A stretch of 64,000 nucleotides of DNA, from the NCBI GenBank assembly GCA_030679955.1, contig JAUXSF010000026.1:112981-176980 (forward strand), given 5' to 3'. Source of the stretch: Chlamydiales bacterium. Lineage in GTDB: Bacteria; Chlamydiota; Chlamydiia; Chlamydiales; JAJFMA01. The position numbers were made by a program, and so were the translations under genes. Below the pieces are notes generated by a model. The model saw only the letters and a list, made by a program, of their open reading frames with translations. It had not been told where the DNA came from and ran no database searches. Of the stretch, positions 8,519 through 23,170 are shown piece by piece; position 1 is the stretch's first letter, and each line of letters begins with the position of its first letter.

Positions 8519-9601
8519 TCACACTGTAATGTATTGCTGTTTAACAAGTAGCTCTGCGATTAAAACTCCGCCGCCAGCAGCACCTCTGATGGTGTTGTGA
8601 GAGAGACCTACAAATCTGTAGTCCAGCACAGGGCATGGACGCAGACGGCCAACCGTAACCGCCATTCCCTCGCCGGCCATGCTGTCGAGTCGAGGTTGTG
8701 GACGATCAAATTCATCTCTAATTATGATAGGTTGTGATGGAGCTGAAGGCAGTCCAAGGTGTTGCGGCTCTGCCTTAAAATCCTTCCAAGCTTGGATAAT
8801 ATCCTCAGGCGAGGGAATATTCTTAAATTGTACCGACACGCAGGCGAGATGTCCGTCAGTCACTGGGACTCTATTGCAATGAGCAGCAATAGCGATATTC
8901 TCAGCATCAACGATTACGTCACCTTTAATAGACCCTAAGATTTTTAGCGGCTCGCTCTCCGACTTTTCTTCCTCACCAGCGATATAGGGGATCACGTTAT
9001 CTGTAATAGCCAAGGCTGGCACACCAGGATAGCCAGCACCGCTAATCGCTTGAAGCGTAGTGACGATGATTTTGGAGAGACCGAAACGCTGGTGAAGCGG
9101 CCATAGGGGAATCAGATAACTCTGAAGCGAGCAATTGGGCTTGGTTACTATAAAGCCTTTCCAACCCCGCAGCTCTCGTTGGCGTGGCAAGATATCTAAA
9201 TGACCAGCATTTACCTCGGGAATGATCACAGGAACATCCGGATCGCGCCGATGAAAGGAGGCGTTAGAAACAACCGCCAGACCTTCCTGCGCATACTTTG
9301 CTTCAAACTGTTGGGCAACTTCACCGCCTAGGGCAGAAAAAACCAATCGGCAAGAGGCTTTGGCAGCGGCAATATCATCAACATTATGGACAGGCAGATT
9401 GGCGATATCGATAGGAAGGGGAGTCACTTGTCTCCAGCGATTTCCAAGCGCATTAGCATAACTTTGGTTGGCAGAGCGCTTAGAAGAGGCTAAGAAAGCA
9501 ATTTCAAACCACGGATGGTCAGCAAGTGCTGCGATATAGTGCTGACCGACAACTCCTGTGGCTCCCAAGATTCCAACAGGAATTCGGTTCATCGATGACA
9601 T
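8519..9601 (-). CDS. asd: Aspartate-semialdehyde dehydrogenase
   Basis: GILGATGVVGQ Rossmann motif, active-site KPNCSLQ, and SHNTIRGAAGG near the C-terminus. Confidence 0.9.
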   Translation of the reverse strand: MSSMNRIPVGILGATGVVGQHYIAALADHPWFEIAFLASSKRSANQSYANALGNRWRQVTPLPIDIANLPVHNVDDIAAAKASCRLVFSALGGEVAQQFEAKYAQEGLAVVSNASFHRRDPDVPVIIPEVNAGHLDILPRQRELRGWKGFIVTKPNCSLQSYLIPLWPLHQRFGLSKIIVTTLQAISGAGYPGVPALAITDNVIPYIAGEEEKSESEPLKILGSIKGDVIVDAENIAIAAHCNRVPVTDGHLACVSVQFKNIPSPEDIIQAWKDFKAEPQHLGLPSAPSQPIIIRDEFDRPQPRLDSMAGEGMAVTVGRLRPCPVLDYRFVGLSHNTIRGAAGGGVLIAELLVKQQYITV

Positions 9602-10467
9602 CCTGTTATTTGTTCTAAAACAGCCTGTAACTTTTTACGCGTCTCCGGTTGAACCTCGCACAAAGGCAGACGACACGATCCTGCTGGCTTGCCTGACAGA
9701 CGCATCATTTCCTTAACAGGCATGGGATTTGTTTCCAAGCCTGAAGCTAGAAAAAGTGGCAGTAATTCAAAATGCAATGCTCGGGCTGTCGATAAGTCAC
9801 CTCTCTGCATCGCCTCTACCAATGCCACCATACGCTCTGGCACAAGATTTCCCATGGTTGAGACCACTCCATGACAGCCTAGGGCCATGGTTGGAAAGGC
9901 CATGATGTCGTCGCCACTCAGAACGCTGAATTCGTCACAAATAAGCAACATTTCAGAAATCACTGTAGTGGATCCCGAGCAGTCCTTGATTGCAACGATA
10001 TTTGGAATCTCGCTCAGGCGTTTCAACGTCTCTATCGACAAATTCACAGCTGTTCGCACAGGATTGTTGTACAGCATGATCGGTAGGTCTACCGCATTCG
10101 CTATGTTGGCGAAATGCTGATAAAGACCCTCTTGCGTGGGACGATTGTAATAAGGAGTGATGAGAATTAGGGCATCAGCTCCCAACCGCTGGCATTTGAT
10201 TGCTTTATCAATAGTTGTTTGTGTGCAGTTGCCTCCGCAGCCGGCAATAACAGGGATTCTTCCTGCGACGGTTTGTAGGGCCAGTGTGATGGCACGCTCT
10301 TGCTCTAGCGGCGAGAGGGTAGGGCTTTCTCCTGTCGTCCCTAAGACGACAAGCCCGCTTACGCCAGCAGCAAGTTGATCATGGATGTTTTGAATGAAGC
10401 CTGCTTCATCAAAACATCCATCCTTAAAAGGAGAAATAAGCGCCGTAATCAAGCCACGAAAACGCAT
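9589..10467 (-). CDS. dapA: 4-hydroxy-tetrahydrodipicolinate synthase
   Basis: GTTGESPTLS, YNRPTQEGLYQHF and IVAIKDCSG (Schiff-base Lys). Overlaps asd by 13 nt. Confidence 0.9.
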   Translation of the reverse strand: MRFRGLITALISPFKDGCFDEAGFIQNIHDQLAAGVSGLVVLGTTGESPTLSPLEQERAITLALQTVAGRIPVIAGCGGNCTQTTIDKAIKCQRLGADALILITPYYNRPTQEGLYQHFANIANAVDLPIMLYNNPVRTAVNLSIETLKRLSEIPNIVAIKDCSGSTTVISEMLLICDEFSVLSGDDIMAFPTMALGCHGVVSTMGNLVPERMVALVEAMQRGDLSTARALHFELLPLFLASGLETNPMPVKEMMRLSGKPAGSCRLPLCEVQPETRKKLQAVLEQITGCHR

Positions 10468-10484
10468 TAGAACCCTCCATCAGC

Positions 10485-11138
10485 TCAAGCGAAGTAAGGA
10501 ATCTTGACCCAACCCATCTTGTTAGCCCCTGCAGCAGCGCCGACGGCACCGGCGCCAAGCGCTGCCATAGACACTGTCTGGACAGCTAGCGAAGAGATCA
10601 TAGGTCCTTTAGCAAATTTATATGCAGCATTGAATGGGGCAGCGGCATATCCGAAAGCGCCCTTAGCAAACGCTCCAACCTTGTCAGCGAACGTTGCGGG
10701 TTTAGCTTCTTCAACTTTGGGCTTAGGAACATGAGGCGAGGCAAGCTTGAAGTAACGCATACTGCCTGTGGCCCAGTCAGGTACGACGGCACCGACAGGA
10801 GCCAAGATCGTACCCGCGACAACACATTCAATCGCCTTTACAAGGTGGCGTGCCGCTTCACCGCGATTGAATGTTGGAGCATTCAAAGGATCGATGCTTC
10901 TCCAACGTACAGTGAACGCATTAAACAATATTTCCAAAGTACCGGTTATCAAGGCATATAAAGTCTTGAAGACGCACGCGGCTACGTGACAGACTGCATC
11001 GATGTATGCCGAGAGGATAACCGTCGGCGCAACGATACGCGTCGTTAAGAATGCTCCGCGCTTTTCTGCAAAGAAATCTACGGTATTGGCCCACGTGGAT
11101 GTTGCTGGACTCATTAAAGAATTGACTTTGTCTAACAT
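10485..11138 (-). CDS. Hydrophobic/Ala-Gly-rich membrane protein, unknown function; first gene of the dapA-asd-dapL transcription unit
   Basis: ATG 11138 is preceded by AGGAGGGAG. It has hydrophobic segments (VAPTVILSAYIDAVCHVAACVF, SSLAVQTVSMAALGAGAVGAAAGA). Only 17 nt separate its stop from the dapA start. Confidence 0.55.
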   Translation of the reverse strand: MLDKVNSLMSPATSTWANTVDFFAEKRGAFLTTRIVAPTVILSAYIDAVCHVAACVFKTLYALITGTLEILFNAFTVRWRSIDPLNAPTFNRGEAARHLVKAIECVVAGTILAPVGAVVPDWATGSMRYFKLASPHVPKPKVEEAKPATFADKVGAFAKGAFGYAAAPFNAAYKFAKGPMISSLAVQTVSMAALGAGAVGAAAGANKMGWVKIPYFA

Positions 11139-11270
11139 GCTCTCCCTCCTTGTACAAGGCATAAAATTGTAGCAGGGTTTCCAACTCTTCGCACCTACTT
11201 TTTTTCCCTAGGTGGGAATAACTTTTAATAGACAATATTATCAACTTCAGTTAATCTCCCTTGAAAGGCG

Positions 11271-11299
11271 TTGACATTTGTATGATGTCATACGTAATA
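11271..11299 (+). promoter_or_regulatory. Candidate sigma70-type promoter for the yacL-like/acpS unit
   Basis: TTGACA (11271-11276), a 17-nt spacer, then GTAATA (11294-11299), about 30 nt upstream of ATG 11331. Confidence 0.35.
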
Positions 11300-11330
11300 A
11301 GAATGAAATGCTTATTTAGGTTTACTAACT

Positions 11331-12455
11331 ATGAAACTCTCAGTTGCTTTTGTTCGAAATTTTTTCCTCGTGCTTAGCGTGCTTTTTGTGACGGCGTTTG
11401 TAATAAACACGAATTGGGATTTGGGTTTCACAAACAAACTTCTGCTGGGAGTTGGTGGTGGACTGGCCTTCGGAGTTGTAATAGCCCTCGTAGGACGCAT
11501 TTTCGAGCGCTTTAATCTTCGAATGTTCAATCTTGCAGCCCTAGGTCTTTTATTTGGATACCTGATGGGTCAGGCGATTCTTCTGGTGTTTGAGGCTGTT
11601 CTAGGTGCCTTTACAACACAAGTTGATGCAGCGACCTTGGGTTTAATCCGTACACTTGTTTTCCTATCAAGCATTTACGTCAGCATGATCTTCGCGGTCA
11701 GAGCAGCTGAAGAAATTTCCTTAAGCATCCCCTTCGTTCAATTCAACCAAGACACTAAGAAGAAAAAAGACATCCTGGCTGACTCCTCGATTCTGTTAGA
11801 CAGCCGCATTATCGATGTCGTCGCTTCTGGTTTAGTGGACAACTACCTAATCATCCCAAGATTTATTCTTAGCGACCTTCATATGCAGTCGGAATCAGAA
11901 GATGAGTCTGTGAAAGCTCGCGCTCGTCGTGCTCTTGAAGTCATTAAGAAGATGGAAGGAATGTCAGCTCTCGGCCTACGCTTTACTGACACAGATCTAC
12001 CAGACATTAAGGATCCTGTATTAAAGCTTATCCGCATAGCGCGCATGCTCGATGCGAATATTCTGACAGCAGATATCAGCCGCATTCAGCAATCGGAAGT
12101 TGAAGGTGTACGCATCGTAAACATCCATAGCTTGGCAAATTCTCTAAAACCTGTTGCACAGGCTGGCGAGTACATTCACATTAAGATTCAGCGTTACGGC
12201 AAAGAGCCACGTCAAGGCGTTGGTTATCTTGAAGACGGTACAATGGTCGTGATTAATGGTGGCGCTGAGTTCATCGGTGAAACCATCCGCGCTCGTGTTC
12301 TGTCTGTAAAGCATACAAGTTCAGGACGTATGATCTTCTGCAACACGGCAGAAGAGTGGGCAGCCCAAGAGGGTGCGGCAGCAGCCGCTGAAGCCGCTGG
12401 AGCAGCAGCAACGTCAACACAAGACTCCGCTTCGAAGAAGTACTTCTCGGTATAA
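11331..12455 (+). CDS. PIN/TRAM domain membrane protein (YacL-like)
   Basis: Four N-terminal hydrophobic helices, a central PIN-like region (ILLDSRIIDVVASG, ANILTADIS) and a C-terminal TRAM-like beta domain (GETIRARVLSVKHTSSGRMIF). Confidence 0.65.
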   Translation: MKLSVAFVRNFFLVLSVLFVTAFVINTNWDLGFTNKLLLGVGGGLAFGVVIALVGRIFERFNLRMFNLAALGLLFGYLMGQAILLVFEAVLGAFTTQVDAATLGLIRTLVFLSSIYVSMIFAVRAAEEISLSIPFVQFNQDTKKKKDILADSSILLDSRIIDVVASGLVDNYLIIPRFILSDLHMQSESEDESVKARARRALEVIKKMEGMSALGLRFTDTDLPDIKDPVLKLIRIARMLDANILTADISRIQQSEVEGVRIVNIHSLANSLKPVAQAGEYIHIKIQRYGKEPRQGVGYLEDGTMVVINGGAEFIGETIRARVLSVKHTSSGRMIFCNTAEEWAAQEGAAAAAEAAGAAATSTQDSASKKYFSV

Positions 12456-12459
12456 ATTC

Positions 12460-12831
12460 ATGATCAAGGGCCTTGGTAGCGACATTATTGCAGTGGAACG
12501 CATCACCAAGGCTCTTGAACGACATGGCGACCGTTTTTTAGACACCGTTTTCACAGAGCGCGAAGTTGCCTATTGCCGGCGTTATCAGGAAGCCGACCGA
12601 CACTTTGCTGGCCGGTTTGCCGCCAAGGAAGCAGTAGTTAAGTCGTTAGGGACTGGCTTTCGCCAAGGAATCACATTTGTAGATATTGAAGTGATCAACG
12701 ACGGCTACGGTAAGCCGGAGATCCATCTTTCAAAAAAAGCCGCAGAAACCATCGGTCCCGGCCGCTTTTTGATTACCATCAGCCATTGTCATTCGTACGC
12801 CACCGCCACCGCCATCTGGGTGGATGAGTGA
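12460..12831 (+). CDS. acpS: Holo-[acyl-carrier-protein] synthase
   Basis: MIKGLGSDIIAVERI... and FAAKEAVVKSLG motifs, about 123 aa. ATG 12460 follows the upstream stop directly. I reject the track's longer 12373 start, which overlaps the previous gene. Confidence 0.9.
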   Translation: MIKGLGSDIIAVERITKALERHGDRFLDTVFTEREVAYCRRYQEADRHFAGRFAAKEAVVKSLGTGFRQGITFVDIEVINDGYGKPEIHLSKKAAETIGPGRFLITISHCHSYATATAIWVDE

Positions 12832-12833
12832 CC

Positions 12834-13421
12834 TTAAAGTTCCTTTTCCGCGGCATGTCGATCAAGCCAGCCACTATACCAGCAGACGGCGGGCATAAAA
12901 ATAAACCAAACGATACCGATAACAATAAGTGAGTGAGCGCCTGGCATTAAGAAAGTGGCTGCCCCTAAACGCTCGCCAGCTGCATAGCTGGACATACCTC
13001 CAAGAGCTCCTAACACCGCTGCGGCGACAGGATAGTTACGAAGCCAAAAGAGTGAGTAGTCTACGGCAGCAGCAAAAAGAAGGTAAACGCCAGCCATCCA
13101 AACAGGCGGTGCCCACCAAGCCCAACCGTTAGGGCTAGCGTAGGTTAAGACTCCGCTAGTTATAAGGCCAATGTCAATAAAGCAGCCGGCTAAGGTCACG
13201 CTTGATAGAAAGAGCAGATCTTTACCGCGCTGATGAGAGAGGACAAAATGAACAAGCATCAGTGGCGTTAAGATAGCCAACCCCATGTATGGGCGTCCGG
13301 AGGCGGCGTAGACGACTAGAGCTGTCCATCCTCCATAAAAAGAAAGGCTGTTAAAAATACGCGCGACAATAGGGTGTTTAATTGTGCGGTGAAGATGAGT
13401 ACCGATTTGTCTAAAGACCAT
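12834..13421 (-). CDS. DUF2878-like integral membrane protein
   Basis: Multi-pass hydrophobic protein with a C-terminal GALGGMSSYAAGERLGAATF pattern, which I recall as typical of DUF2878. Confidence 0.5.
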   Translation of the reverse strand: MVFRQIGTHLHRTIKHPIVARIFNSLSFYGGWTALVVYAASGRPYMGLAILTPLMLVHFVLSHQRGKDLLFLSSVTLAGCFIDIGLITSGVLTYASPNGWAWWAPPVWMAGVYLLFAAAVDYSLFWLRNYPVAAAVLGALGGMSSYAAGERLGAATFLMPGAHSLIVIGIVWFIFMPAVCWYSGWLDRHAAEKEL

Positions 13422-13427
13422 GAGGAA

Positions 13428-14819
13428 TCACTTGGGAGTCGTTGCGCCTAATAGATGACGTAGGCAGGTTTCGAGATCAGCATAAGCAAAAGGATAAAGT
13501 AAGTCAGTCAAACGTTTTGGTTGCACTCGCGTACTAGAGAGCAGCAGTGCATCCCCCATCTCTCCAAAAGCTAAACGAACTATAGCTTCTGGCATGGGTA
13601 TTAGGGTTGGCCTATTGAGAACTCTACCGAGTGTTTTGGTAAAAATGGCGTTAGTAACTGGATGTGGAGACACAACGTTGACGGGACCGGTTAAACGTTC
13701 ATCCATCAGCGCACGGTACAGACTGTAAACAGCGTCATCGATACCTATCCAGCTGTAAAACTGCTCACCATTGCCTAAATTTCCACCGAGACCAAATTTA
13801 AAAGGCGTTAGCATTTGCTTTAATGCGCCATGTTTGGGGCTAAGTACAATACCAAAGCGTGCTAATACCACACGGGTTGATGTTAGCTTGGAGGTAGCAT
13901 GTTCCCATTGGCCCGCCAGATCGGCCAGAAAACCTTGGCCTTTGGAACTGCTTTCATCGACTAACTCGTTACCGCGATCTCCATAGAAGCCGATTGCTGA
14001 GGCATTTATGAAGACTTTGGGTGGATGGGTAAGATTAGCGCAGGCAGAGACTAATAAATCAGTGCTATTGACCCGGCTAGAACGTAGTTTTTCTTTTTTT
14101 GCCTCTGTCCATCTACCAGAAGCAATGTTGTCACCCGCTAGATTGATAATGGCATCAAACTTCTCTAGCTTTTCAGATTGGATAACATTCTTTTCCGGAT
14201 CCCAAAAGACATCTGTAGGGGAGGTGGGCGCGCTTCGCACCAAGCGGTGGACAGTGTGGCCAGCGCATTGAAGAAATGGTATCAAAGCTGCGCCAATTAG
14301 GCCGGAAGTACCCGAAATGAGAACACGCTGTGGAGGCGAGTCAACGAATGGAAGCATTGCCTGAAGGTCATTGTTTAACATGCTATGTCGGTAAGCAAGT
14401 AGGCGGTCTACATCGCGGCACACAAACCCATCCAATAAAGCATCGCCAAAAAAGCCTCCAGGTACACGGTAGGAGACTTCGTCCTCAATGGTGCAATGGC
14501 CAGCGGTAGCATTCTGGAATCGATGTTCATGGTGCCAATAGGCAAAGGGACCTTTAATCTGCGTGTCAGAGAAACGCGCGCCTTCGACGACATCGTCGAT
14601 TTCAGCAACCCAATCAAAGGTTAAGAATCCCTTCTTAACCTTCAGATACAGTCTATTTCCCTTAGCAAGGCCGGAATCCATGCGGGTGACCTTGACGTTG
14701 CTCCATGGAGGAACAAGGCGTTCAAAGGCCCCTGGTTGCTTATGCCAGTCGAAAATCCTTTCAGCTGTGGCCGTTAAGGGACTGCGTAATGAAACTGAAT
14801 GTACGTTAGAATCTGTCAT
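13428..14819 (-). CDS. SRPBCC (cyclase/dehydrase) domain fused to a YfcH-type NAD-dependent epimerase (TIGR01777/DUF1731)
   Basis: N-terminal AERIFDWHKQPGAFERLVPPW, then a Rossmann motif VLISGTSGLIGAAL, then a C-terminal LLLSSTRVQPKRL. The start is ambiguous: I prefer ATG 14819 because ATG 14915 (track) leaves only 33 bp to the divergent gene. Confidence 0.7.
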   Translation of the reverse strand: MTDSNVHSVSLRSPLTATAERIFDWHKQPGAFERLVPPWSNVKVTRMDSGLAKGNRLYLKVKKGFLTFDWVAEIDDVVEGARFSDTQIKGPFAYWHHEHRFQNATAGHCTIEDEVSYRVPGGFFGDALLDGFVCRDVDRLLAYRHSMLNNDLQAMLPFVDSPPQRVLISGTSGLIGAALIPFLQCAGHTVHRLVRSAPTSPTDVFWDPEKNVIQSEKLEKFDAIINLAGDNIASGRWTEAKKEKLRSSRVNSTDLLVSACANLTHPPKVFINASAIGFYGDRGNELVDESSSKGQGFLADLAGQWEHATSKLTSTRVVLARFGIVLSPKHGALKQMLTPFKFGLGGNLGNGEQFYSWIGIDDAVYSLYRALMDERLTGPVNVVSPHPVTNAIFTKTLGRVLNRPTLIPMPEAIVRLAFGEMGDALLLSSTRVQPKRLTDLLYPFAYADLETCLRHLLGATTPK

Positions 14820-14948
14820 GTCTCTATTACGTCTCAAATGAGCGATTCCGTCAAACAGTTTCAGTAGGGAGTTCAACAACCACGCTCCCTTTGCCCCTTC
14901 AGCAGTAAAAAACATTCTACATATTGTTTTTTTTGGTTAAGCTGAGCC

Positions 14949-16298
14949 ATGCGGGAGATAATTGTGAAAAAAGCTAGAATTGCTGTTATCGGTGCCGGCC
15001 TTTCCGGCTTAGCGTGTGCCTACGAGCTTACGAAGGCTGGTCAGGATGTTGTCGTTTATGAAAAAGCAGGCAGGGTAGCTGGGCGCTCGCTAACTCGGCG
15101 TGATGGCCTCTATCCTTTTGATACCGGAGCACAGTTCCTCAACAATGGCTACTCACAATGCCGTGCATACTGCAAAGAACTAGGGATAAGTAATCTGTGG
15201 CGTACCATGGACGTCAGCACCCACCATCTTTACAAGAATGGAAAACTGCACTGCATATCCTTTAAATCCATCGGGGAGTTCCTAGGACTTTCATTCTACT
15301 CCACCTTAGCACGTGTTCGGTTGTTGATGTGCTATCTACGTCTGCAGCGCGACGCCAAAGGTATTGATCTTTACGATCTTAGCAAGGCCAATACTAAGTT
15401 TGATCAGATTAGTGCACGCGATTACATTCTGAAGTGGGGTGGCCAGGAAGTACTAGACTATGCTTTCGATTCGCTCATCGCTACCTACCATTTTCATGGC
15501 GCCCATGACCTAAGCCTGAGCTGTCTTTTAGGCGCCATTTCCGCCATTGGAAAAGACTTTTCTTACGATTACTTTGAAGGTGGCCTGGATATGCTTGCCC
15601 AGGCCTTGGCTAAAAAAGTGCTGGTTAACTGCGGCCGTGAAGTGCAGAAGGTTGTTCCAGGGCTTGGAGGCATTATAGTCGAAGAGGCGCGCTCTAAGGA
15701 GGTTTTTGACCATGTGGTGATCGCCACTACAGCATCGGTGGCCAAAAGCATCTTAAAGGGCGCAAGTCCAGACCAAAAGCAGCTGTTAGACGCCGTTAAC
15801 TACTCCTCTACCGTTACTGCTGCCTTCCGCGTACCTTCTGCTGCAGTATCAAATCTGGCAATGGTTGCGGTACCTGCATCTCAAAATCAGAACATCTGCT
15901 GCTATTTTAACCAGAACAGCAAGTATGTTGATCTTCTATCAGGGGAGTATACCTTGATAAACGTCTTCTTAAGGGATGAATGCGCCAAAGAATGGATCAG
16001 CGCGCCCGATGAACAGTTGTGGGAGTTTATTAAGGCGGAACTCATCGAGGTTTGTCCTCCTCTAAAATCCTGCGTCGGTAAGGTTGAGCCCTACGATCTG
16101 CAGCGTTGGCCAGAGGCTATTCCCAAATACTCAGTCGGCTTTGTTTCACATGCGGGACGCTTCTGGCAGGAAGGTCAGGGTGACAATAATGTCTTTATGT
16201 GCGGAGATTACCTCAACGCTCCATGGATGGAAGGCAGCACGCGCTGTGGTAAAAAGGTTGCGGAATCCGTTCTCGCCTCTATTACTGTTAATAAGTAA
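14949..16298 (+). CDS. FAD-dependent oxidoreductase (amine oxidase / protoporphyrinogen oxidase superfamily)
   Basis: IAVIGAGLSGLACAYEL dinucleotide-binding motif at the N-terminus and GDYLNAPWMEGSTRCG near the C-terminus. An alternative GTG start at 14964 has GGGAGA upstream. Confidence 0.7.
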   Translation: MREIIVKKARIAVIGAGLSGLACAYELTKAGQDVVVYEKAGRVAGRSLTRRDGLYPFDTGAQFLNNGYSQCRAYCKELGISNLWRTMDVSTHHLYKNGKLHCISFKSIGEFLGLSFYSTLARVRLLMCYLRLQRDAKGIDLYDLSKANTKFDQISARDYILKWGGQEVLDYAFDSLIATYHFHGAHDLSLSCLLGAISAIGKDFSYDYFEGGLDMLAQALAKKVLVNCGREVQKVVPGLGGIIVEEARSKEVFDHVVIATTASVAKSILKGASPDQKQLLDAVNYSSTVTAAFRVPSAAVSNLAMVAVPASQNQNICCYFNQNSKYVDLLSGEYTLINVFLRDECAKEWISAPDEQLWEFIKAELIEVCPPLKSCVGKVEPYDLQRWPEAIPKYSVGFVSHAGRFWQEGQGDNNVFMCGDYLNAPWMEGSTRCGKKVAESVLASITVNK

Positions 16299-16414: not shown

Positions 16415-17683
16415 ATGGATAATATAAATAGTAATAATGTTAGTTTTATTTCTTCTCACGAGTCAAAGTCATTCGAAATTGCGAATGATGCAAATACGGA
16501 AGCATTCGAGACCGTCGTTTTGGAAGAGAATACTCCTCCCGTGGCGAGTGGTGAATCTCAGTCCTACGCTCGTTGGATGTGGGAAGGTATGTTTCACTCT
16601 CATAAAGTGGCGTCTCAAGTTACCGATAGTCAACCAGCGGTTATAGAGAACAAAGAAAATGGCTCTTGGTGGCCTAAGACTTGGAGCAGCAGCAATCGTG
16701 CAGCAACTAAGATGCAGCGAGTGGTCGATGCCAATATGAACAAAATTACCGAATCGTGCCGAGTCCTCACAGACCTTCACCACCTAATCTTGGAAAATGC
16801 GGATAATATTAGACAATGGACAGGCCGTGAGTTAGCAGAATCAACAGTTGGTGTACAAGAGAACCAGGCTAGTGTGGAATATGCCCAAGGCAACGTGGAC
16901 TTATATAGAGCTGAGCTTTCCGAGCTTAAAGCGATCGTGCATGCACTGCGATCTGGCGATATTCAGTTGAGTATCACCGCATTGGATAATCGACGTGAGG
17001 CGCTGAATGTAAGACTTAGTGAGACGGAGGCCCAGCTAGAAAGGGCCAAACAAGGTATTGTCGACCTGACAGCAAACCTGCCAAATCTTGAAGGCGAGTA
17101 CATTCAAGGATTACGTGTCCAGATAGAAGGTTTAAAGCCAGCTCGTGATAAGGCTTACCAAACACATAAAAGTGAACCAACAGAAGAGTCTAGAGCAATG
17201 TGCGACCGTCTTCAAGGCGAGTTGGATGGTTTGAGTTCACGCGTTCGTAACGAAATGCCCGAAGCAGCAAAGGATGCTCATGACGCAATTAAAGGCCTTA
17301 AGCAAGACCGAGAAACATTAGAAGGCAAGATTCGCGTGTTGACAAGTTCAGTAGAGCAAGTACAAGGCATGGTCCAAGAAGTCAATCAGGGATACAAGCG
17401 CAAGGTCAGAAAGACCATAGAGGCTCAAATTGCGAAGACAGAACCGCGTTTAGAAACCTTCGAAGGAGCCCTGTTGGTTGCTAAAGCGCCATTGTTACGT
17501 CAAGAACGCGCTAACACCATTTCGCAATTGTTGCAAGGATGGCTTGACGGCCGATTGGATATGCTACAAGTACCCGATTTCACCAATGCGACGCATGTTG
17601 ATGTGTGGGTACAGCAAGCTGCAAATATTCGTAAGCAGGCTGTAGATGTATTCAAACAGGTTCCCAATCTGGTTATAAGCTAA
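16415..17683 (+). CDS. Orphan 422-aa coiled-coil protein, effector candidate
   Basis: No signal peptide. Long heptad-like Glu/Lys/Leu/Gln-rich stretches (e.g. RREALNVRLSETEAQLERAKQGIVDL). Own AT-rich leader and a strong downstream hairpin. Confidence 0.65.
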   Translation: MDNINSNNVSFISSHESKSFEIANDANTEAFETVVLEENTPPVASGESQSYARWMWEGMFHSHKVASQVTDSQPAVIENKENGSWWPKTWSSSNRAATKMQRVVDANMNKITESCRVLTDLHHLILENADNIRQWTGRELAESTVGVQENQASVEYAQGNVDLYRAELSELKAIVHALRSGDIQLSITALDNRREALNVRLSETEAQLERAKQGIVDLTANLPNLEGEYIQGLRVQIEGLKPARDKAYQTHKSEPTEESRAMCDRLQGELDGLSSRVRNEMPEAAKDAHDAIKGLKQDRETLEGKIRVLTSSVEQVQGMVQEVNQGYKRKVRKTIEAQIAKTEPRLETFEGALLVAKAPLLRQERANTISQLLQGWLDGRLDMLQVPDFTNATHVDVWVQQAANIRKQAVDVFKQVPNLVIS

Positions 17684-17705
17684 TAACCAATATAGTCGAC
17701 ACAAG

Positions 17706-17729
17706 GCGCAGAGGGAATTCCCTTTGCGC
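17706..17729. terminator. Bidirectional hairpin between convergent genes
   Basis: GCGCAGAGGG (17706-17715), loop AATT, CCCTTTGCGC (17720-17729), giving a 10-bp stem with one G-U pair, followed by TTTC. Confidence 0.55.
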
Positions 17730-17774
17730 TTTCATTGTAGCCGCGAATGCAGCTAAAGGGACGGCATAAAAAAC

Positions 17775-18656
17775 CTAAGAAATTAGCCAGATAGTTAACA
17801 GGATCCATGTGACAGCGGTAGCGACCATATGCTTATCACCCAGCAGCTCCTTGGCAGGGTTTTCCCCAGCATGCCACTTGTGCAACAAATACATGTAGCG
17901 GAAGATGCCGTAAGTAACCAATGGCACGGTGGCAATAAGATTAGGGGTGTGATGGATACGAATGGTTTCCGGATTAGTAGCGTACAGGCTATATGAGAGA
18001 ATTGTACACGCTGCTGTGATACCAATTAAGCTATCGAGTAGTTCTGGAGTGTAGTGAGAGAGTACCTTACGTCCAGTTTCATTGGTTTCCGCCATCACAA
18101 TAGCTTCAGCGCGTCGTTTTGTGAAGGCTAGGAATAATGTTACCATAATGGTGCACAGTAGAAGCCATTGAGAAGGGGGAATACCTATTCCTAAGGTACC
18201 TGCAAGGACTCTAAGAATAAAGCCGGTAGCGATGACGAAGGCATCCACTATAACGACATGTTTTAAGCGGATAGAATAGGCGAAATTCATCAGGCAGTAG
18301 ATGGCGATGATAATTAGAGCAGTCCAAGAGACCATCCAAGCTGCGGCAAAGCCAACTGTCCAGAGAATTGCCGCTAGAATGCTAGCTGCCTGAACCGACA
18401 CGGTGCCGGCTGCAATAGGTCGAAGTCTCTTCTTGGGATGATTCCTGTCGGCTTCGACATCCATGATATCATTGATAACATAGACACCGCTAGAGACTAG
18501 GCAGAAGGCAAAAGCACATAAGAGGGAACTCCACAGAATGTGAGGTTGTGTCCACGCATGGCCGAAGAACAGTCCAACAAAGACAAAGCCGTTTTTCCAC
18601 CATTGAAAAGGGCGCATCAGCCGTATTAACTGTCTAACATAGCTCAATGAACTCAC
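17775..18656 (-). CDS. UbiA-family polyprenyl-phosphate phosphoribosyltransferase (decaprenyl-phosphate 5-phosphoribosyltransferase, Rv3806c-like)
   Basis: Multi-pass membrane protein with NDIMDVEADRNHPKKRLRPIAAG (NDxxDxxxD plus the HPxK-RP motif of the DPPR-synthase subgroup). Overlaps the upstream SDR gene by 4 nt. Confidence 0.75.
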   Translation of the reverse strand: MSSLSYVRQLIRLMRPFQWWKNGFVFVGLFFGHAWTQPHILWSSLLCAFAFCLVSSGVYVINDIMDVEADRNHPKKRLRPIAAGTVSVQAASILAAILWTVGFAAAWMVSWTALIIIAIYCLMNFAYSIRLKHVVIVDAFVIATGFILRVLAGTLGIGIPPSQWLLLCTIMVTLFLAFTKRRAEAIVMAETNETGRKVLSHYTPELLDSLIGITAACTILSYSLYATNPETIRIHHTPNLIATVPLVTYGIFRYMYLLHKWHAGENPAKELLGDKHMVATAVTWILLTIWLIS

Positions 18657-19396
18657 AGCTTCAACCTCTTAAAGATCTTTTCTGGAATACACGTAATGAT
18701 CAACATGATGTAGCGCCAAAACCAGGGGAGGTAAACGATATCCTTTTTGGCCTCGATCGCCTGTCCTATTTTTTTGCCCATCTCCTTGGGATCAGCCACC
18801 AAGAACATTCCCTTTTTCCCAAAGGTCATGCCAGTGTCGACAAAACCGAGCTTTACAGTTAGTACGTTGACGCCGGATGAGTATAGGCGATTTCGCAACC
18901 CTTGTAGGTAGGTCGTAAGCGCACTTTTGGCAGTACCATAGCAGTAGTTGCTTTGTCGCCCACGATCTCCAGCAACGGAGGACAGACCAGCGATAAAGCC
19001 TGAGCCCTTAGCTTCGAAGTAATTGGCGCACTCATCTAAAATGGAGACTGCTCCCAGGAAATTGCGGTTAAGAATCTTCTGTGCTTCTGAAGGGTCTTTT
19101 GAGGCTTTGGATTGCTCTCCAAGATATCCAAAGGCTAGGACAACCCCCTCTAAGCCACCTGTTTCGCGCACGACTTCTTGGAAGAAGGGTGTGTGTGTAT
19201 CTAGTTTTTCTGCATCGAAAGAGGCTTCCCACACTTTGACGTCGTAGCGGTGCTTGATATCAGAAGCGATGCGTCGTAACTCTTCAGGATCTCGGCTGGT
19301 AAGGTACAGGCTATTTCCCTTTGCTGCCAGGTAGTTAGCCAGGGCACGTGCAATAGGAGAAGTAGCTCCTAGAATAAGAATGACACCTGTTTTCAA
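18653..19396 (-). CDS. Short-chain dehydrogenase, DprE2-like (decaprenylphospho-2-keto-ribose reductase type)
   Basis: ILGATSPIARALA Rossmann motif and YGTAKSAL catalytic Tyr/Lys. The C-terminal WRYIMLIITCIPEKIFKRLKL closely resembles my recollection of the Mtb DprE2 tail [21 protein letters not shown]. Confidence 0.75.
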   Translation of the reverse strand: MKTGVILILGATSPIARALANYLAAKGNSLYLTSRDPEELRRIASDIKHRYDVKVWEASFDAEKLDTHTPFFQEVVRETGGLEGVVLAFGYLGEQSKASKDPSEAQKILNRNFLGAVSILDECANYFEAKGSGFIAGLSSVAGDRGRQSNYCYGTAKSALTTYLQGLRNRLYSSGVNVLTVKLGFVDTGMTFGKKGMFLVADPKEMGKKIGQAIEAKKDIVYLPWFWRYIMLIITCIPEKIFKRLKL

Positions 19397-20775
19397 CGGA
19401 AACCTCCAATCTGTAGCCTTTGCGACAAATCGGACCTAATTCTGTTTTTCGGATCCACCTTAGCTTTAATTAGTTGGAATTCCTGATAGCGTGGGTACAT
19501 AGCGCGGAACATGTCTGCCTTCATGCGCGCATCCTTAGCCAGGTAGACACGTCCGTCATACTGCAGCACCAACTGATCTAGTTGGTCTAGGAAGGGAAAG
19601 AGATCGGAATCTGTCACAGCAATATCCAAAGCGAGAGTAAAGCCCTCTGTAGGAAAGGAGAGGAGGCCTTGGTCTTGTTTACCAAAGCGCTTAAGCACTG
19701 CTAGGAAGGACGCGCGCTTGCTGCTAGCTAGTCTGTCCAGAATAGCACGTAGGCCTTCTGCAGCTTTTTGCGTGGGTATAACAAACTGGTATTGGATAAA
19801 TCCCTTCTTGCCGTAGATCCTATTCCAATGCGCAATAGCATCGAGAGGATAGAAAAATGGATCGAAGCTAACCAGCCGAGGTTCAGTCTTGCGACTTTGT
19901 CGGCTGTAGTACAGATCATTAAAGCGTTGTACCGACCAGCGGTTCACGGCTGAAAAGGGCAAGGCCATTGGCACAGTAAGTTGTAGGGGGCGCTTGATTT
20001 GTAGAGGCTTCGCTCTGGTTGCGGTAGGCAGCATATCGAGCTTGGCGTGGTGACCTAAAATAACAACGCTGCGTCCAAGATCTTTGCCAGTGGCTAGGCA
20101 ATCTATCCATGCTACGGAGTATTTATCGTCGGAGCTTTCTTCCGAAAGTAGTTTAATAGCCTCATCCAAATTTCGTGCAGCGCAGTGGCGCGTGGAAATA
20201 TAGGCCGTATCAATGGGTTGTAGTTGCAGGGATACCTCTGAAATGATCCCCGTTAAACCCATGCCGCCAACAGTTGCCCAAAAGAGCTCTTGATTTTGCG
20301 TTGCAGAGCAGCGCTGAGCGGTTCCATCGGCTAAAATAAGCTCTAACTCTTTTACATGTGCACCAAAGGATCCATCGCGATGGTGGTTTTTGCCATGCAC
20401 ATCAGCGGCGATACATCCACCCAAAGTGACGAATTTTGTTCCAGGTGTGACTGGTGGGAACCATCCTTTAGGGACAAAGTACTTGATGATGTCATCGATA
20501 GTTAAGCCAGCTTCAGCTTGCAGCAAACCTGTGGAGGCGTCAAAAGACAGCACGCGGTCCAAACGCTCTGTGACGATGACATTTTCACCACTCAAAAGTG
20601 CTGCATCACCATAGCTACGTCCCAGCCCGCGCGGAATATATGGGTCTGGAAGGTCAAAGAGATCGCGGTAGCGCTCTGGCCGCACCACATTGGTGGTAAC
20701 GACAGGGTAATTACCCCAACTGGATAATGCGGCATTGTGTTGGACGGGCAGTGTCACAGGCTTCTCCTCCTGCAC
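19393..20775 (-). CDS. FAD-dependent oxidase, DprE1-like (decaprenylphosphoryl-beta-D-ribose 2-oxidase type)
   Basis: GLGRSYGD, VTLGGCIAADVHGKNHH, ELFWATVGGMGLTGII, GFIQYQFVIP and GGRVYLAKDARM all match DprE1 blocks as I recall them. Overlaps the SDR gene by 4 nt (ATGA). Confidence 0.8.
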   Translation of the reverse strand: MQEEKPVTLPVQHNAALSSWGNYPVVTTNVVRPERYRDLFDLPDPYIPRGLGRSYGDAALLSGENVIVTERLDRVLSFDASTGLLQAEAGLTIDDIIKYFVPKGWFPPVTPGTKFVTLGGCIAADVHGKNHHRDGSFGAHVKELELILADGTAQRCSATQNQELFWATVGGMGLTGIISEVSLQLQPIDTAYISTRHCAARNLDEAIKLLSEESSDDKYSVAWIDCLATGKDLGRSVVILGHHAKLDMLPTATRAKPLQIKRPLQLTVPMALPFSAVNRWSVQRFNDLYYSRQSRKTEPRLVSFDPFFYPLDAIAHWNRIYGKKGFIQYQFVIPTQKAAEGLRAILDRLASSKRASFLAVLKRFGKQDQGLLSFPTEGFTLALDIAVTDSDLFPFLDQLDQLVLQYDGRVYLAKDARMKADMFRAMYPRYQEFQLIKAKVDPKNRIRSDLSQRLQIGGFR

Positions 20776-20874
20776 ACACTGTTACCAGTTTAGGTATTTA
20801 TCGCAAAGCGGTATGCAGCGACTTTAATCCCATTTACAATGCGTAAAAGAGGTCAACGTGGTAAAGTACTTACT

Positions 20875-21663
20875 ATGAATACGAACTTAAGAGTTTTTTT
20901 CGGTTTAGAGGTTGAAGCGCCATGGCCAGAAAGGTTACCCGCTGGAAGACTCGTTCCTGCTAATGGCAGGCATATGACTGTGGCTTTTCTCGGTAATGCA
21001 AGCGAAGAACGTATTCATCAGCTTCTGAATGCTATGCCCCAACAACCTTTTTCTGTTGGAGGAGTAGGGGTTACGGACAGATGTTTTTTCACTCCAAATG
21101 TTGTTGCCTGGCATTTAAAATGGTTAGGAGATGGCTCACCCTATGAGTGCTACATAGCGGCGATTAAAGATCATTGTAAAGGCCTCAATTTTGAGATCGA
21201 TGCACGACCATTTCTTCCGCATGTGACAATAGCGCGGCAACCATTTGAGGCGGATGAATGGAAAGCAGCATTTAGTCCCATCCCGGTTGTTGTTAAGGCA
21301 TTGCATCTTTATCAAAGTTTACCGCAATTGGACTATAGGCCTATTTGGACGTCTGAGTTTATCCCTCCTTTTGTAGAGATTGAGCACGAAGCTGATATAG
21401 CTTTTCATATCCAAGCGGAAAATATGCAACAGTTAGGCTGCAATGCACAAGCTGCGCTATTGTTTAAATTTCCCGATCTAATTCCATTCCTAGAAACTAT
21501 CCCTGAAGGGGTCACTTTGGACAAGATTATTCAATCCTTGAATAGGACCATTGCAATAGCTGATAGTCAAATAGGCAGCAGTGTTAAAGCCGTTAGTTAT
21601 CACGGAGAGGTGACGAGCAATGCTGATGGCTTGCTAAGCTGGGAAATGATCATCGATGTTTAA
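20875..21663 (+). CDS. Fusion protein: 2H phosphoesterase (LigT / 2'-5' RNA ligase-like) N-domain plus archease C-domain
   Basis: Two HxT motifs (HMTVAFLG, HVTIARQ) after an RVFFGLEV start make up the 2H fold. The C-terminal 100 aa carries EHEADIAFHI..., VKAVSYHGEV and a terminal WEMIIDV, matching the archease EHTADIG / VKAITYH / ...DI pattern. Start is ATG 20875; the track start is 20839. Confidence 0.7.
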   Translation: MNTNLRVFFGLEVEAPWPERLPAGRLVPANGRHMTVAFLGNASEERIHQLLNAMPQQPFSVGGVGVTDRCFFTPNVVAWHLKWLGDGSPYECYIAAIKDHCKGLNFEIDARPFLPHVTIARQPFEADEWKAAFSPIPVVVKALHLYQSLPQLDYRPIWTSEFIPPFVEIEHEADIAFHIQAENMQQLGCNAQAALLFKFPDLIPFLETIPEGVTLDKIIQSLNRTIAIADSQIGSSVKAVSYHGEVTSNADGLLSWEMIIDV

Positions 21664-21742
21664 TGCTTCTTTGCGTTAAATACCCCCAAAATTCAAAAAT
21701 CTTACATAATGCGGCTTACTAACGCGATACCCCGGAAGACCC

Positions 21743-23170
21743 ATGTCGGATTTAGAGAAGAAAAGCCCTGGAATTTACATTCTTCCCATGCGCGGAGGCA
21801 TGCGAGTGCCGGGCCTTATAGTCGCTAATGAAGAGCTATTGGCTGACATGGAAATCGACAAACCGCTAGAGCAAGTGGCCAACGTTGCTTATCTACAGGG
21901 CATTATTGGTTATAGTATAGCGATGCCTGATATCCATTGGGGTTATGGGTTTCCGATTGGCGGCGTGGCGGCTATGGATGCTGACTATGGCGTCATTAGC
22001 CCGGGCGGTGTTGGATACGATATCAATTGTGGCGTACGCCTAGCCATGGTTCCTGAGAAGTTTACTAACTTGAACGAGAAGATTCAAAAGCAACTACTTG
22101 ACCGTATTTTTAAGCTGGTGCCTTCTGGAGTAGGCAAGGGCCATGGAAAGGCTCGTGAGCTATCTGATCAAGAGATGCGTGATCTGACTACTCAAGGGGC
22201 CCGCTGGTCTATTCAAAAGGGCTTTGGTTTTGCTGAAGATTTAGATCATATGGAAAGTCATGGCGTGATCGAAGGAGCTGACGTTGATGTAGTGAGCCAT
22301 TATGCTCTCGATCGCGGCAGGGGACAGCTTGGGACCATCGGTTCTGGGAATCACTTCGTAGAGATCGGAGCCGTCGACAAAATTTACAGATCGGATATTG
22401 CCGAAGCATGGGGTGTCGAAGAAGGGCAAATCTATATACTGATTCACTCTGGATCGCGCGGCTTTGGTCATCAGGTGTGCCAAGAAACGCTAGATAGTTT
22501 TATCTCTCAAGGTTATGCCAAAGACCTTCCCGATAAACAGCTTGTCGCAGCACCACTAAAGAGTCATGCAGGGCAACAGTACTTTAAAGGCATGGCTGCG
22601 GCGGCGAATTTTGCCTTTAATAACCGACAGCAGATTCTCCATGGCGTGCGTAAAGCCATTCATGATGTGCTGAATATAGCGCCGCAAAAAGTTAGGCTAA
22701 TCTACGATGTATGTCATAACATCGCTAAGTTTGAAACTCACGAGTTCGAGGGAGTCCAGCGTCGCTTGTGTGTGCATCGCAAAGGTGCCACTAGGGCTTT
22801 TGGACCGGGAAATTCCGAGCTCAACCCTGTTTTCCGTAAGACTGGTCAGCCAGTTCTTGTTCCGGGTGATATGGGGCGTGCCAGCCATCTGATGGTAGGT
22901 TGCGGCAATCCTATCACATGGTCCAGTGCCTGCCATGGTGCAGGACGAGCGCGCAGTCGCCATGCCTCTAAAAAGGCGTGGGAGGGGCGAGACCCTCTAC
23001 GACATATGGAGTGTCAGCATGTTCGCGTGATGGCAACATCATTGAAGACAATTGTGGAAGAGATGCCCGATGCTTACAAGAACGTCGATGTAGTTGTAGC
23101 CGCCGTGGAAGAGGCTAAGCTAGCAAATATGGTCGCAAGACTTCGCCCACACCTAGTCGTGAAAGGATAA
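21743..23170 (+). CDS. rtcB: RNA 3'-phosphate ligase RtcB
   Basis: GYDINCGVR, GSGNHFVE, HSGSRGFGHQV and CHGAGR motifs, 475 aa. Confidence 0.95.
   Translation: MSDLEKKSPGIYILPMRGGMRVPGLIVANEELLADMEIDKPLEQVANVAYLQGIIGYSIAMPDIHWGYGFPIGGVAAMDADYGVISPGGVGYDINCGVRLAMVPEKFTNLNEKIQKQLLDRIFKLVPSGVGKGHGKARELSDQEMRDLTTQGARWSIQKGFGFAEDLDHMESHGVIEGADVDVVSHYALDRGRGQLGTIGSGNHFVEIGAVDKIYRSDIAEAWGVEEGQIYILIHSGSRGFGHQVCQETLDSFISQGYAKDLPDKQLVAAPLKSHAGQQYFKGMAAAANFAFNNRQQILHGVRKAIHDVLNIAPQKVRLIYDVCHNIAKFETHEFEGVQRRLCVHRKGATRAFGPGNSELNPVFRKTGQPVLVPGDMGRASHLMVGCGNPITWSSACHGAGRARSRHASKKAWEGRDPLRHMECQHVRVMATSLKTIVEEMPDAYKNVDVVVAAVEEAKLANMVARLRPHLVVKG

Follow-up and report, generated by a model that had tools for sequence, protein, structure and literature searches.

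D-arabinofuranose (D-Araf) is familiar chiefly from the cell walls of mycobacteria and is absent from eukaryotic hosts, and the glycans of Chlamydiota are usually described as a minimal 3-deoxy-D-manno-octulosonic acid (Kdo)-lipid A. What a chlamydia would do with genes for a lipid-linked D-Araf donor is the question raised by a three-gene locus in a 64,000-nucleotide stretch of DNA from a Chlamydiales bacterium (GenBank contig JAUXSF010000026.1, positions 112,981 to 176,980; this whole stretch is referred to as the window). An original prediction, made from the sequence alone, had described the locus as a complete operon of the DprE1-DprE2-UbiA type, resembling the decaprenyl-phospho-arabinose genes of Mycobacterium tuberculosis. 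The three genes encode members of these enzyme families with conserved catalytic and substrate-site residues, and the locus is conserved in four chlamydial genomes. On this basis the operon probably makes polyprenyl-phospho-β-D-arabinofuranose, a donor with which a surface glycan would be modified by a transferase encoded elsewhere.

Results

Organization of the operon

The operon consists of three head-to-tail genes on the minus strand, extending from position 20757 (20775 if the longest reading frame is taken) to 17775 in the order DprE1-like, DprE2-like and UbiA-fold. The longest open reading frame (ORF) of the first gene, predicted to encode a FAD-dependent polyprenyl-phospho-ribose 2'-oxidase, runs from a GTG at 20775 to 19393 (460 amino acids, aa), and 20775 had been taken in the original prediction as the end of the operon. 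Translation probably begins at the GTG codon at position 20757, giving a gene of 454 aa (19393..20757, minus strand), because a Shine-Dalgarno-like GGAGGA (20770-20765, minus strand) is placed 7 nt 5' of this codon, and because P0001, the 100% identical protein of the public annotation, is likewise 454 aa long and its relatives comprise 451-454 aa. The second gene (19396..18653, minus strand, 247 aa, TTG start) is predicted to encode a short-chain dehydrogenase (SDR) acting as 2'-keto reductase, and the third (18656..17775, minus strand, 293 aa, GTG start) a UbiA-fold, Rv3806c-like polyprenyl-phosphate 5-phosphoribosyltransferase.

Direct reading of the sequence revealed that both downstream starts overlap a TGA stop. 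The DprE1 stop and the DprE2 TTG start share the 4 nt TTGA, with GGAGG ahead of the TTG, and the DprE2 stop and the UbiA GTG start share the 4 nt GTGA, with AAGAGG ahead of the GTG. The overlaps had been described as 4-nt and ATGA-type, of which the length was right at both junctions and the sequence was not; an arrangement of this kind fits a single, translationally coupled operon. The protein motifs that had been pointed out (GLGRSYGD, HGKNHH, ELFWATVGGMGLTGII, YQFVIP, NDIMDVEADRNHPKKRLRPIA and TLALDI) were all found.

Comparison of the three proteins with their mycobacterial counterparts

The first protein matched FAD_binding_4 (PF01565) and ALO (PF04030) in Pfam, corresponding to a PCMH-type FAD-binding domain and an ALO-like C-terminal domain. 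Using HMMER, residues 47-456 aligned with residues 52-460 of M. tuberculosis DprE1 (E 5e-100, 338 bits, 42.5% identity), which was the top match of this protein among all solved structures, the next family reaching only 47 bits. Furthermore, in an alignment of 85 homologues that included the window protein and the M. tuberculosis enzyme, residues Y60, H132, K134, Q334, Q336, K367, D389, Y415 and K418 (M. tuberculosis numbering), which we take to line the flavin and substrate site of the M. tuberculosis structures, were invariant in 85/85 sequences. The assignment of the first gene as DprE1-like was therefore upheld by the best structural match as well as by the active-site residues.

The same alignment bears on Cys387, the benzothiazinone-binding residue of M. 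tuberculosis DprE1, which catalysis does not require. An alanine had been proposed at this position in the window protein, and HMMER indeed placed TLALDI opposite the mycobacterial NICVDF, with Ala at Cys387 and Thr at Asn385. However, position 387 is Ala in 73 of the 85 sequences and Cys in M. tuberculosis only, position 385 is Thr in 83/85, and positions 385, 387, 228 and 314 depart from the M. tuberculosis enzyme across the whole non-actinobacterial branch. The substitution, although real, thus marks this entire branch and is not peculiar to the window gene.

The second protein (adh_short in Pfam) had M. tuberculosis DprE2 (21gq_C) as its top match among solved structures (E 8e-27, 97 bits, 31.7% identity), the next SDR following at 1.6e-12 and 50 bits, in agreement with its earlier description as a DprE2-like SDR. 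Residues 5-246 of 247 were aligned, LSSVAG...YGTAK standing opposite the mycobacterial MSSAAG...YGSTK, so that the catalytic Ser and the YxxxK motif are kept. The C-terminal tail had been called nearly that of Rv3791, which was overstated; the alignment does reach the last residues, but 11 of 29 are identical. The protein passes the generic SDR model PRK07102 (291 against a cutoff of 267), and its proposed function as DprE2 is based on its linkage with DprE1, found in 62 of 72 loci (see below).

The third protein belongs to the UbiA family of Pfam and passed the cutoffs of the decaprenyl-phosphate phosphoribosyltransferase equivalog NF008977 (271 versus 234) and of NF008978 (218 versus 207). 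Its top structural match was Rv3806c (8j8j; E 3e-37, 132 bits, 33.3% identity), compared with 41 bits for the top UbiA match that is not a phosphoribosyltransferase. The Mg2+/phosphoribosyl pyrophosphate (PRPP)-binding residues of Rv3806c as defined by cryo-EM are R22, K28, Y70, N73, D77, K87, R90, Q135, Y138, K143, Y157 and K208 (PMC10994848). In the window protein 10 of these 12 are identical, the differences being Q135 to Asn and Y157 to Phe, of which the latter is also seen in some mycobacteria (PMC10994848). Ordinary UbiA prenyltransferases do not share the phosphoribose sites of Rv3806c (PMC10994848). The Rv3806c-like nature of the third gene was thus supported by model cutoff, structure and site residues alike. 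The searches against all solved structures, which served as the reciprocal comparison proposed earlier for Rv3790, Rv3791 and Rv3806c, placed each M. tuberculosis counterpart on top by far, at E-values that make chance resemblance of no concern.

These comparisons leave room for a different redox or epimerisation reaction on the polyprenyl-phospho-pentose, by which the donor would be not D-Araf but, for example, a 2-keto sugar or another epimer. The DprE2-like protein, with about 32% identity to Rv3791, is below the equivalog cutoff, and DprE1 positions 385, 387, 228 and 314 differ from the M. tuberculosis enzyme as described above; moreover, ORF13, a different and single GalE-like SDR, converts this ribose lipid to the xylofuranose form (PMC11127046). 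Nevertheless, epimerases of the ORF13 type are single GalE-like SDRs and not a FAD oxidase combined with an SDR, DprE1 and DprE2 homologues accompany Araf glycans in every Gram-negative case listed in that study (PMC11127046), and the flavin and substrate-site residues that were checked are invariant. We consider production of a different pentose quite unlikely.

Conservation of the operon in a chlamydial clade

The earlier description of the host as a chlamydia-like genome is supported. P0001, the exact match of the DprE1-like protein, is annotated from a metagenome-assembled genome (MAG) named 'Chlamydiales bacterium' on a 186,645-bp contig. The window further encodes a full-length homologue of the chlamydial protease-like activity factor CPAF (50277-51989, minus strand), a hallmark chlamydial virulence protease, which scored 720 bits with the NCBIfam equivalog against a cutoff of 250 and contains PDZ_4 and Peptidase_S41 domains, as well as a plant/chlamydia-type LL-diaminopimelate (LL-DAP) aminotransferase (DapL). 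The GC content near the operon (0.48) is like that of the remainder of the window. That the host is an obligate intracellular organism whose envelope is minimal was, in contrast, an assumption: the contig of one clade relative, labelled Chlamydiae, is 3.9 Mb or longer, and a second chlamydial clade, discussed below, carries an O-antigen-like sugar cluster.

In relatives of the same clade (L001/L006, which are one contig, L003 and L086) the trio recurs together with its 4-nt overlaps, at 64-73% identity to the window proteins. In the four clade genomes, the operon has ribBA, ribH, RtcB and LigT genes as syntenic neighbours on one side, and amine oxidase, YfcH-type SDR, DUF2878 and BipA genes on the other. 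The operon is thus an old and conserved resident of this clade, and the combination of intact ORFs, kept overlaps and synteny at 64-73% identity argues for purifying selection and long residence.

Related loci in other chlamydiae and other phyla

A second and apparently large chlamydial clade (L004/L005, L087, L168, L169 and L170, from MAGs partly named Chlamydiia or Chlamydiales) carries the genes in the order DprE1-DprE2-HAD-UbiA, usually followed by a flippase-like gene of the PF03706 family. In L170 (2768-20961) this module is located beside genes for Wzx, AsnB, a UDP-sugar dehydrogenase, a DegT aminotransferase and GFO plus hexapeptide proteins (WbpA/E/B/D-like), and environmental chlamydiae would thus seem to possess a polysaccharide locus resembling those for O-antigen. 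Among the best 120 matches to the flippase-like protein of this clade, all named proteins were from Chlamydiota, indicating that the five-gene module is common in environmental chlamydiae.

The closest non-chlamydial loci (L093, positions 8477-14490; L089; and the context of P0024) contain a six-gene operon, PMT_2(GT-C)-DprE1-DprE2-HAD-UbiA-PF03706 (LPG_synthase_TM), which appears to be a self-contained and as yet uncharacterised arabinosylation module. The nearest relatives outside the window clade share 53-58% identity in DprE1, 58-62% in DprE2 and 48-58% in UbiA, and the window DprE2 and UbiA are at least as similar to the betaproteobacteria-like L089 and L093 as to the other chlamydial clade.

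Beyond these, DprE1 relatives are abundant. A full HMMER scan of 1.84 billion representatives clustered at 50% identity yielded 2,145 clusters from many phyla at E <= 1e-30, and a word-indexed search with the DprE1-like protein gave at least 8,000 candidates at E <= 1e-20. A scan of a genome collection with the single protein returned mostly Bacteroidota, with one chlamydial representative (L006) among the returns, while a metagenome scan with the clade alignment, used for context statistics, contained among the matches listed relatives of up to 56% identity from other phyla. Among the loci in which the sequence reached 5 kb or more to each side of DprE1 (72 in number), 62 had a DprE2-like gene within 7 kb of it, 56 a UbiA gene, 30 a HAD gene and 45 a large polytopic membrane protein. 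As environmental bacteria commonly carry this gene set, the pathway is of a known and very widespread kind, and it is the host lineage and the reduced architecture that are new.

In a rough neighbour-joining tree, computed without bootstrap, the window clade was monophyletic inside a broad environmental Gram-negative radiation, with M. tuberculosis as a distant long-branch outgroup, and the two chlamydial clades did not join. The history of the operon may involve either one or two ancient acquisitions.

As the genome is a MAG, the operon could in principle lie on non-chlamydial DNA through a binning or assembly artefact, or could have been transferred very recently; the separation of the two chlamydial clades in the tree, and the closeness of L089 and L093, which equal or exceed the other chlamydial clade in DprE2 and UbiA identity, would fit such an origin. 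Both possibilities are extremely improbable in view of the CPAF equivalog and the chlamydia/plant-type DapL encoded in the window, the unremarkable GC content, and the recurrence of one housekeeping neighbourhood (ribBA, ribH, RtcB ... BipA) around the operon in independent assemblies, one of which is labelled Chlamydiae. An ancient transfer into the ancestor of the clade is possible and is compatible with synthesis of a D-Araf donor.

Several other arrangements were observed among the DprE1 homologues. Fusion proteins of DprE1 and DprE2 of about 690-700 aa are encoded in some genomes (P0255, P0267, P0278 and L072), and proteins of this type also make up some of the 2,145 clusters. In L049, L051-L056, L060-L064, L074, L077 and L079, a DprE1 homologue occurs without a DprE2 or UbiA homologue in up to 10 kb on each side, and these genomes include Chryseolinea, Cyclobacteriaceae, Rickettsiella and some Gammaproteobacteria. 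The Bacteroidota loci (L007-L046) show the order UbiA-DprE1-DprE2 together with a divergent gene for a polytopic membrane protein of about 550 aa (e.g. L017, 7356-9005, minus strand), which may be an unclassified transferase partner. Of the three such proteins scanned (L017, L058 and L061), two had no Pfam match and that of L017 had a weak Wzy_C match.

Search for accessory genes

Pfam analysis of 43 window proteins detected no PMT/PMT_2/GT-C, PAP2, HAD, GtrA or LPG_synthase_TM (PF03706) domain. No ORF of at least 330 aa with at least six hydrophobic segments, i.e. no large polytopic membrane protein, was present in the 64 kb, and the window gave zero matches to hidden Markov models (HMMs) derived from accessory genes at related loci; it also contains no pilin or TfpW-like gene. 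Likewise, the 21 kb loci of the three clade relatives contained no large polytopic protein and no PMT/PMT_2 match. The DUF2878 protein encoded near the operon, which has four transmembrane segments, was considered as a GtrA-like flippase, for which there was no evidence. The earlier statement that the window has no GT-C or phosphatase gene was thus confirmed within the sensitivity of the Pfam, hydrophobicity and custom-HMM tests. The term 'complete' for the operon stands as far as the three-gene core is concerned, which is intact, but six genes are linked in the closest non-chlamydial loci and five in the second chlamydial clade. With no linked phosphatase, flippase or GT-C gene in the window, the locus represents the core for donor synthesis only.

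Synthesis of a D-Araf donor by this core is supported, besides the enzyme comparisons and the conservation in the clade described above, by the linkage of the trio across phyla (DprE2 in 62/72 and UbiA in 56/72 loci) and by the closest non-chlamydial loci, whose combination of PMT_2 GT-C, HAD and flippase-like genes in one operon corresponds to the polyprenyl-pentofuranose architecture of PMC11127046. Several observations weigh against it. The DprE1-like protein scored 479.2 bits with the NCBIfam DprE1 equivalog NF053785, i.e. just 21 bits under the cutoff of 500, which we judge to mirror the characterised actinobacterial enzymes and to be a curation threshold and not a biochemical feature. 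The DprE2-like protein scored 172 bits with the actinobacterial model NF053786, below its cutoff of 250, and strict membership in the actinobacterial DprE2 equivalog is for this reason not claimed. To our knowledge, no enzyme from this Gram-negative/chlamydial branch has been assayed. A full-text literature search combining DprE1 or decaprenyl with Chlamydiae retrieved nothing relevant, and Chlamydiota are not known to have a D-Araf glycan. Finally, phosphatase, flippase and GT-C genes were found neither in the window nor within 10 kb of the operon in the three clade relatives, and the flippase-like PF03706 protein of the second chlamydial clade had no orthologue from the window clade among its best 120 matches, all of which were at least 54% identical.

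The last two observations, together with the reduction from five or six linked genes in the relatives to three in the window clade, would also be expected if the operon were an orphaned remnant. The clade would then have lost the HAD, flippase and GT-C genes of a five- or six-gene ancestral module, and the core would either have no glycan output or deliver its product (polyprenyl-phospho-ribose-5-phosphate, -ribose or -arabinose) for a purpose other than glycosylation. A pathway that consumed PRPP and carrier lipid to no purpose would be expected to decay, yet three intact ORFs, their catalytic residues and their overlaps have been kept in at least four genomes at 64-73% identity. The Rv3807c phosphatase is dispensable in mycobacteria, which also counts against an orphaned core. 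In addition, 27 of the 72 loci, in other phyla, are likewise without a large polytopic membrane protein nearby, so that an unlinked transferase is not unusual. Taken together, we regard an orphaned remnant as unlikely, and synthesis of a D-Araf donor for a transferase encoded elsewhere as the better explanation of the locus.

Genes and signals flanking the operon

Divergent from the DprE1 gene, and separated from it by a spacer of about 63-81 bp in which the GGAGGA is located, is an RNA-repair pair consisting of a gene with a LigT-type 2',3'-cyclic phosphodiesterase domain followed by RtcB (20839-23170, plus strand). Residues 178-208 of the LigT ORF show a weak archease-like match. A scan for consensus sigma-70 promoters near the operon found no convincing promoter and nothing above shuffled expectation. 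At the other end, a convergent spacer of 91 nt (17684..17774, no strand) contains two GC-rich hairpins (RNA fold −27.9 kcal/mol, z = −2.1), possibly a weak candidate for a bidirectional terminator at the end of the operon. A consensus terminator scan, which also gave nothing above shuffled expectation, did not call this spacer, because its hairpins have no T-run.

Beyond the spacer lies an ORF of 422 aa (16415-17683, plus strand), found in this genome only between the UbiA and amine-oxidase genes, with no significant family and sub-threshold matches to helical domains. In L001, L003 and L086 the UbiA and amine-oxidase genes abut or overlap tail to tail. Also in relatives, a GFO_IDH_MocA gene (with a Ser/Thr kinase gene in L001) is located upstream of DprE1; these genes are absent from that position in the window.

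The conserved block next to the operon (12834-16298) encodes the DUF2878 protein, a fusion of SRPBCC with a YfcH/TIGR01777 SDR, and a PPO/HpnE/CrtI-like amine oxidase. Its presence beside the operon in 4/4 clade genomes, and the weak resemblance of the amine oxidase to HpnE/CrtI enzymes, could be taken as a sign of a UbiA protein of the ordinary prenyltransferase type (aromatic or isoprenoid), with the flavoenzyme and the SDR acting alongside these neighbours in isoprenoid or lipid metabolism and not on sugars. Such a role is highly improbable, as the phosphoribose-specific residues of Rv3806c are conserved in the UbiA protein, whose top match outside the phosphoribosyltransferases reaches just 41 bits, and as the block adjoins the operon in no other locus examined and is transcribed convergently or divergently to it. 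The limitation to one clade and the transcriptional orientation indicate lineage synteny, and a functional link of the operon with the amine oxidase, SRPBCC-YfcH and DUF2878 genes was rejected.

Two further gene groups were noticed in the window. Four tandem paralogues with 28-36% identity (56715-58883, 58899-60920, 60940-62859 and 63096-63983, all on the minus strand) may represent a membrane or effector (Inc-like) family that has expanded; each of the three longer copies contains two to three hydrophobic segments and has no Pfam family (63096-63983 was not scanned). Two adjacent proteins of about 530 aa (44943-46523 and 46731-48368, minus strand) are 60% identical and have an internal GIY-YIG nuclease domain as their sole recognisable feature.

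Discussion

Comparison with known systems

A polyprenyl-phosphoribose synthase combined with a flippase and a GT-C enzyme has been described as a widespread route by which pentofuranoses are added to bacterial glycans outside the cytoplasm, with auxiliary epimerases setting the pentose and DprE1/DprE2 homologues reported in Araf-glycan systems (Kelly et al. 2024, PMC11127046). With the ORF15/ORF14/ORF12-GT136 systems of Citrobacter youngae from that study, the window operon shares a predicted PRPP-dependent polyprenyl-phospho-ribose synthase and predicted auxiliary epimerases, and it is likewise expected to feed a periplasmic, post-polymerisation glycosylation. ORF15 differs in having a fused HAD phosphatase domain, and the Citrobacter-type locus in having a MATE flippase and a GT-C gene, none of which is present in the window. 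Gram-negative use of the same donor pathway is also exemplified, as far as it is cited in PMC11127046, by the D-Araf glycosylation of pilin in Pseudomonas aeruginosa/paraeruginosa PA7-Pa5196 with PPPRS, DprE1/DprE2 homologues and TfpW, although the Pseudomonas genes occur together with TfpW as transferase and a type IV pilin as acceptor, and the window is without either.

The decaprenyl-phospho-arabinose pathway of M. tuberculosis (Rv3806c, Rv3807c, DprE1/Rv3790, DprE2/Rv3791, Rv3789 and the Emb/Aft GT-C enzymes) uses the same three core enzyme families, with active and PRPP sites kept. It differs from the window operon in several respects. The window has no linked PAP2 phosphatase, GtrA/SMR-type flippase or Emb/Aft transferase; its DprE1 has Ala at Cys387 and Thr at Asn385; its carrier lipid is presumably C55 instead of the mycobacterial C50; and it is found in a chlamydia of Gram-negative type, which has no arabinogalactan. 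The six-gene betaproteobacteria-like and five-gene chlamydial modules, which share the order DprE1-DprE2-...-UbiA, are the nearest relatives outside the clade, from which the window clade is distinguished by having no HAD, flippase-like or GT-C genes at the locus. Also, the module of the second clade is surrounded in L170 by a polysaccharide (Wzx/WbpA-B-D-E-like) cluster, whereas the window operon is not so embedded.

Proposed pathway and acceptor

The chemistry set out below and the carrier lipid are inferred from the sequence comparisons, and so are the phosphatase, flippase, transferase and acceptor, both that they exist and what they are. The UbiA-fold protein would transfer ribosyl-5-phosphate from PRPP onto a polyprenyl carrier, and the 5-phosphate would be removed by a phosphatase encoded outside the locus. 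The FAD enzyme would then oxidise the ribose 2'-OH to a ketone, which the SDR would reduce with inverted stereochemistry, yielding the arabinofuranose lipid. This lipid would be flipped, and a GT-C type membrane glycosyltransferase, also encoded elsewhere, would use it to modify a glycan or protein of the cell surface. Judging by analogy from the gene context of the second chlamydial clade, the most likely acceptor would be a lipopolysaccharide (LPS)/O-antigen-like polysaccharide.

A bolder proposal would be that environmental Chlamydiota widely make D-Araf surface glycoconjugates, and that the window clade does so with the three-gene core and non-canonical phosphatase, flippase and transferase proteins, possibly including an unrecognised class of transferase; we put this forward as speculative and rather unlikely.

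Implications

The window DprE1 is expected to be insensitive to covalent benzothiazinones, as are most non-actinobacterial homologues, and with Ala at the Cys387 position the finding has no direct relevance for these drugs. Its interest lies in the surface biology of the host. The six-, five- and three-gene versions of the module form a natural series which could help to pinpoint those accessory proteins that are truly required. If the pathway is active, the operon would serve as a marker for choosing strains for glycan analysis, and D-Araf would be part of the surface chemistry of at least two environmental chlamydial lineages, adding an antigenic or a phage- or host-interaction determinant to those of the Chlamydiota.

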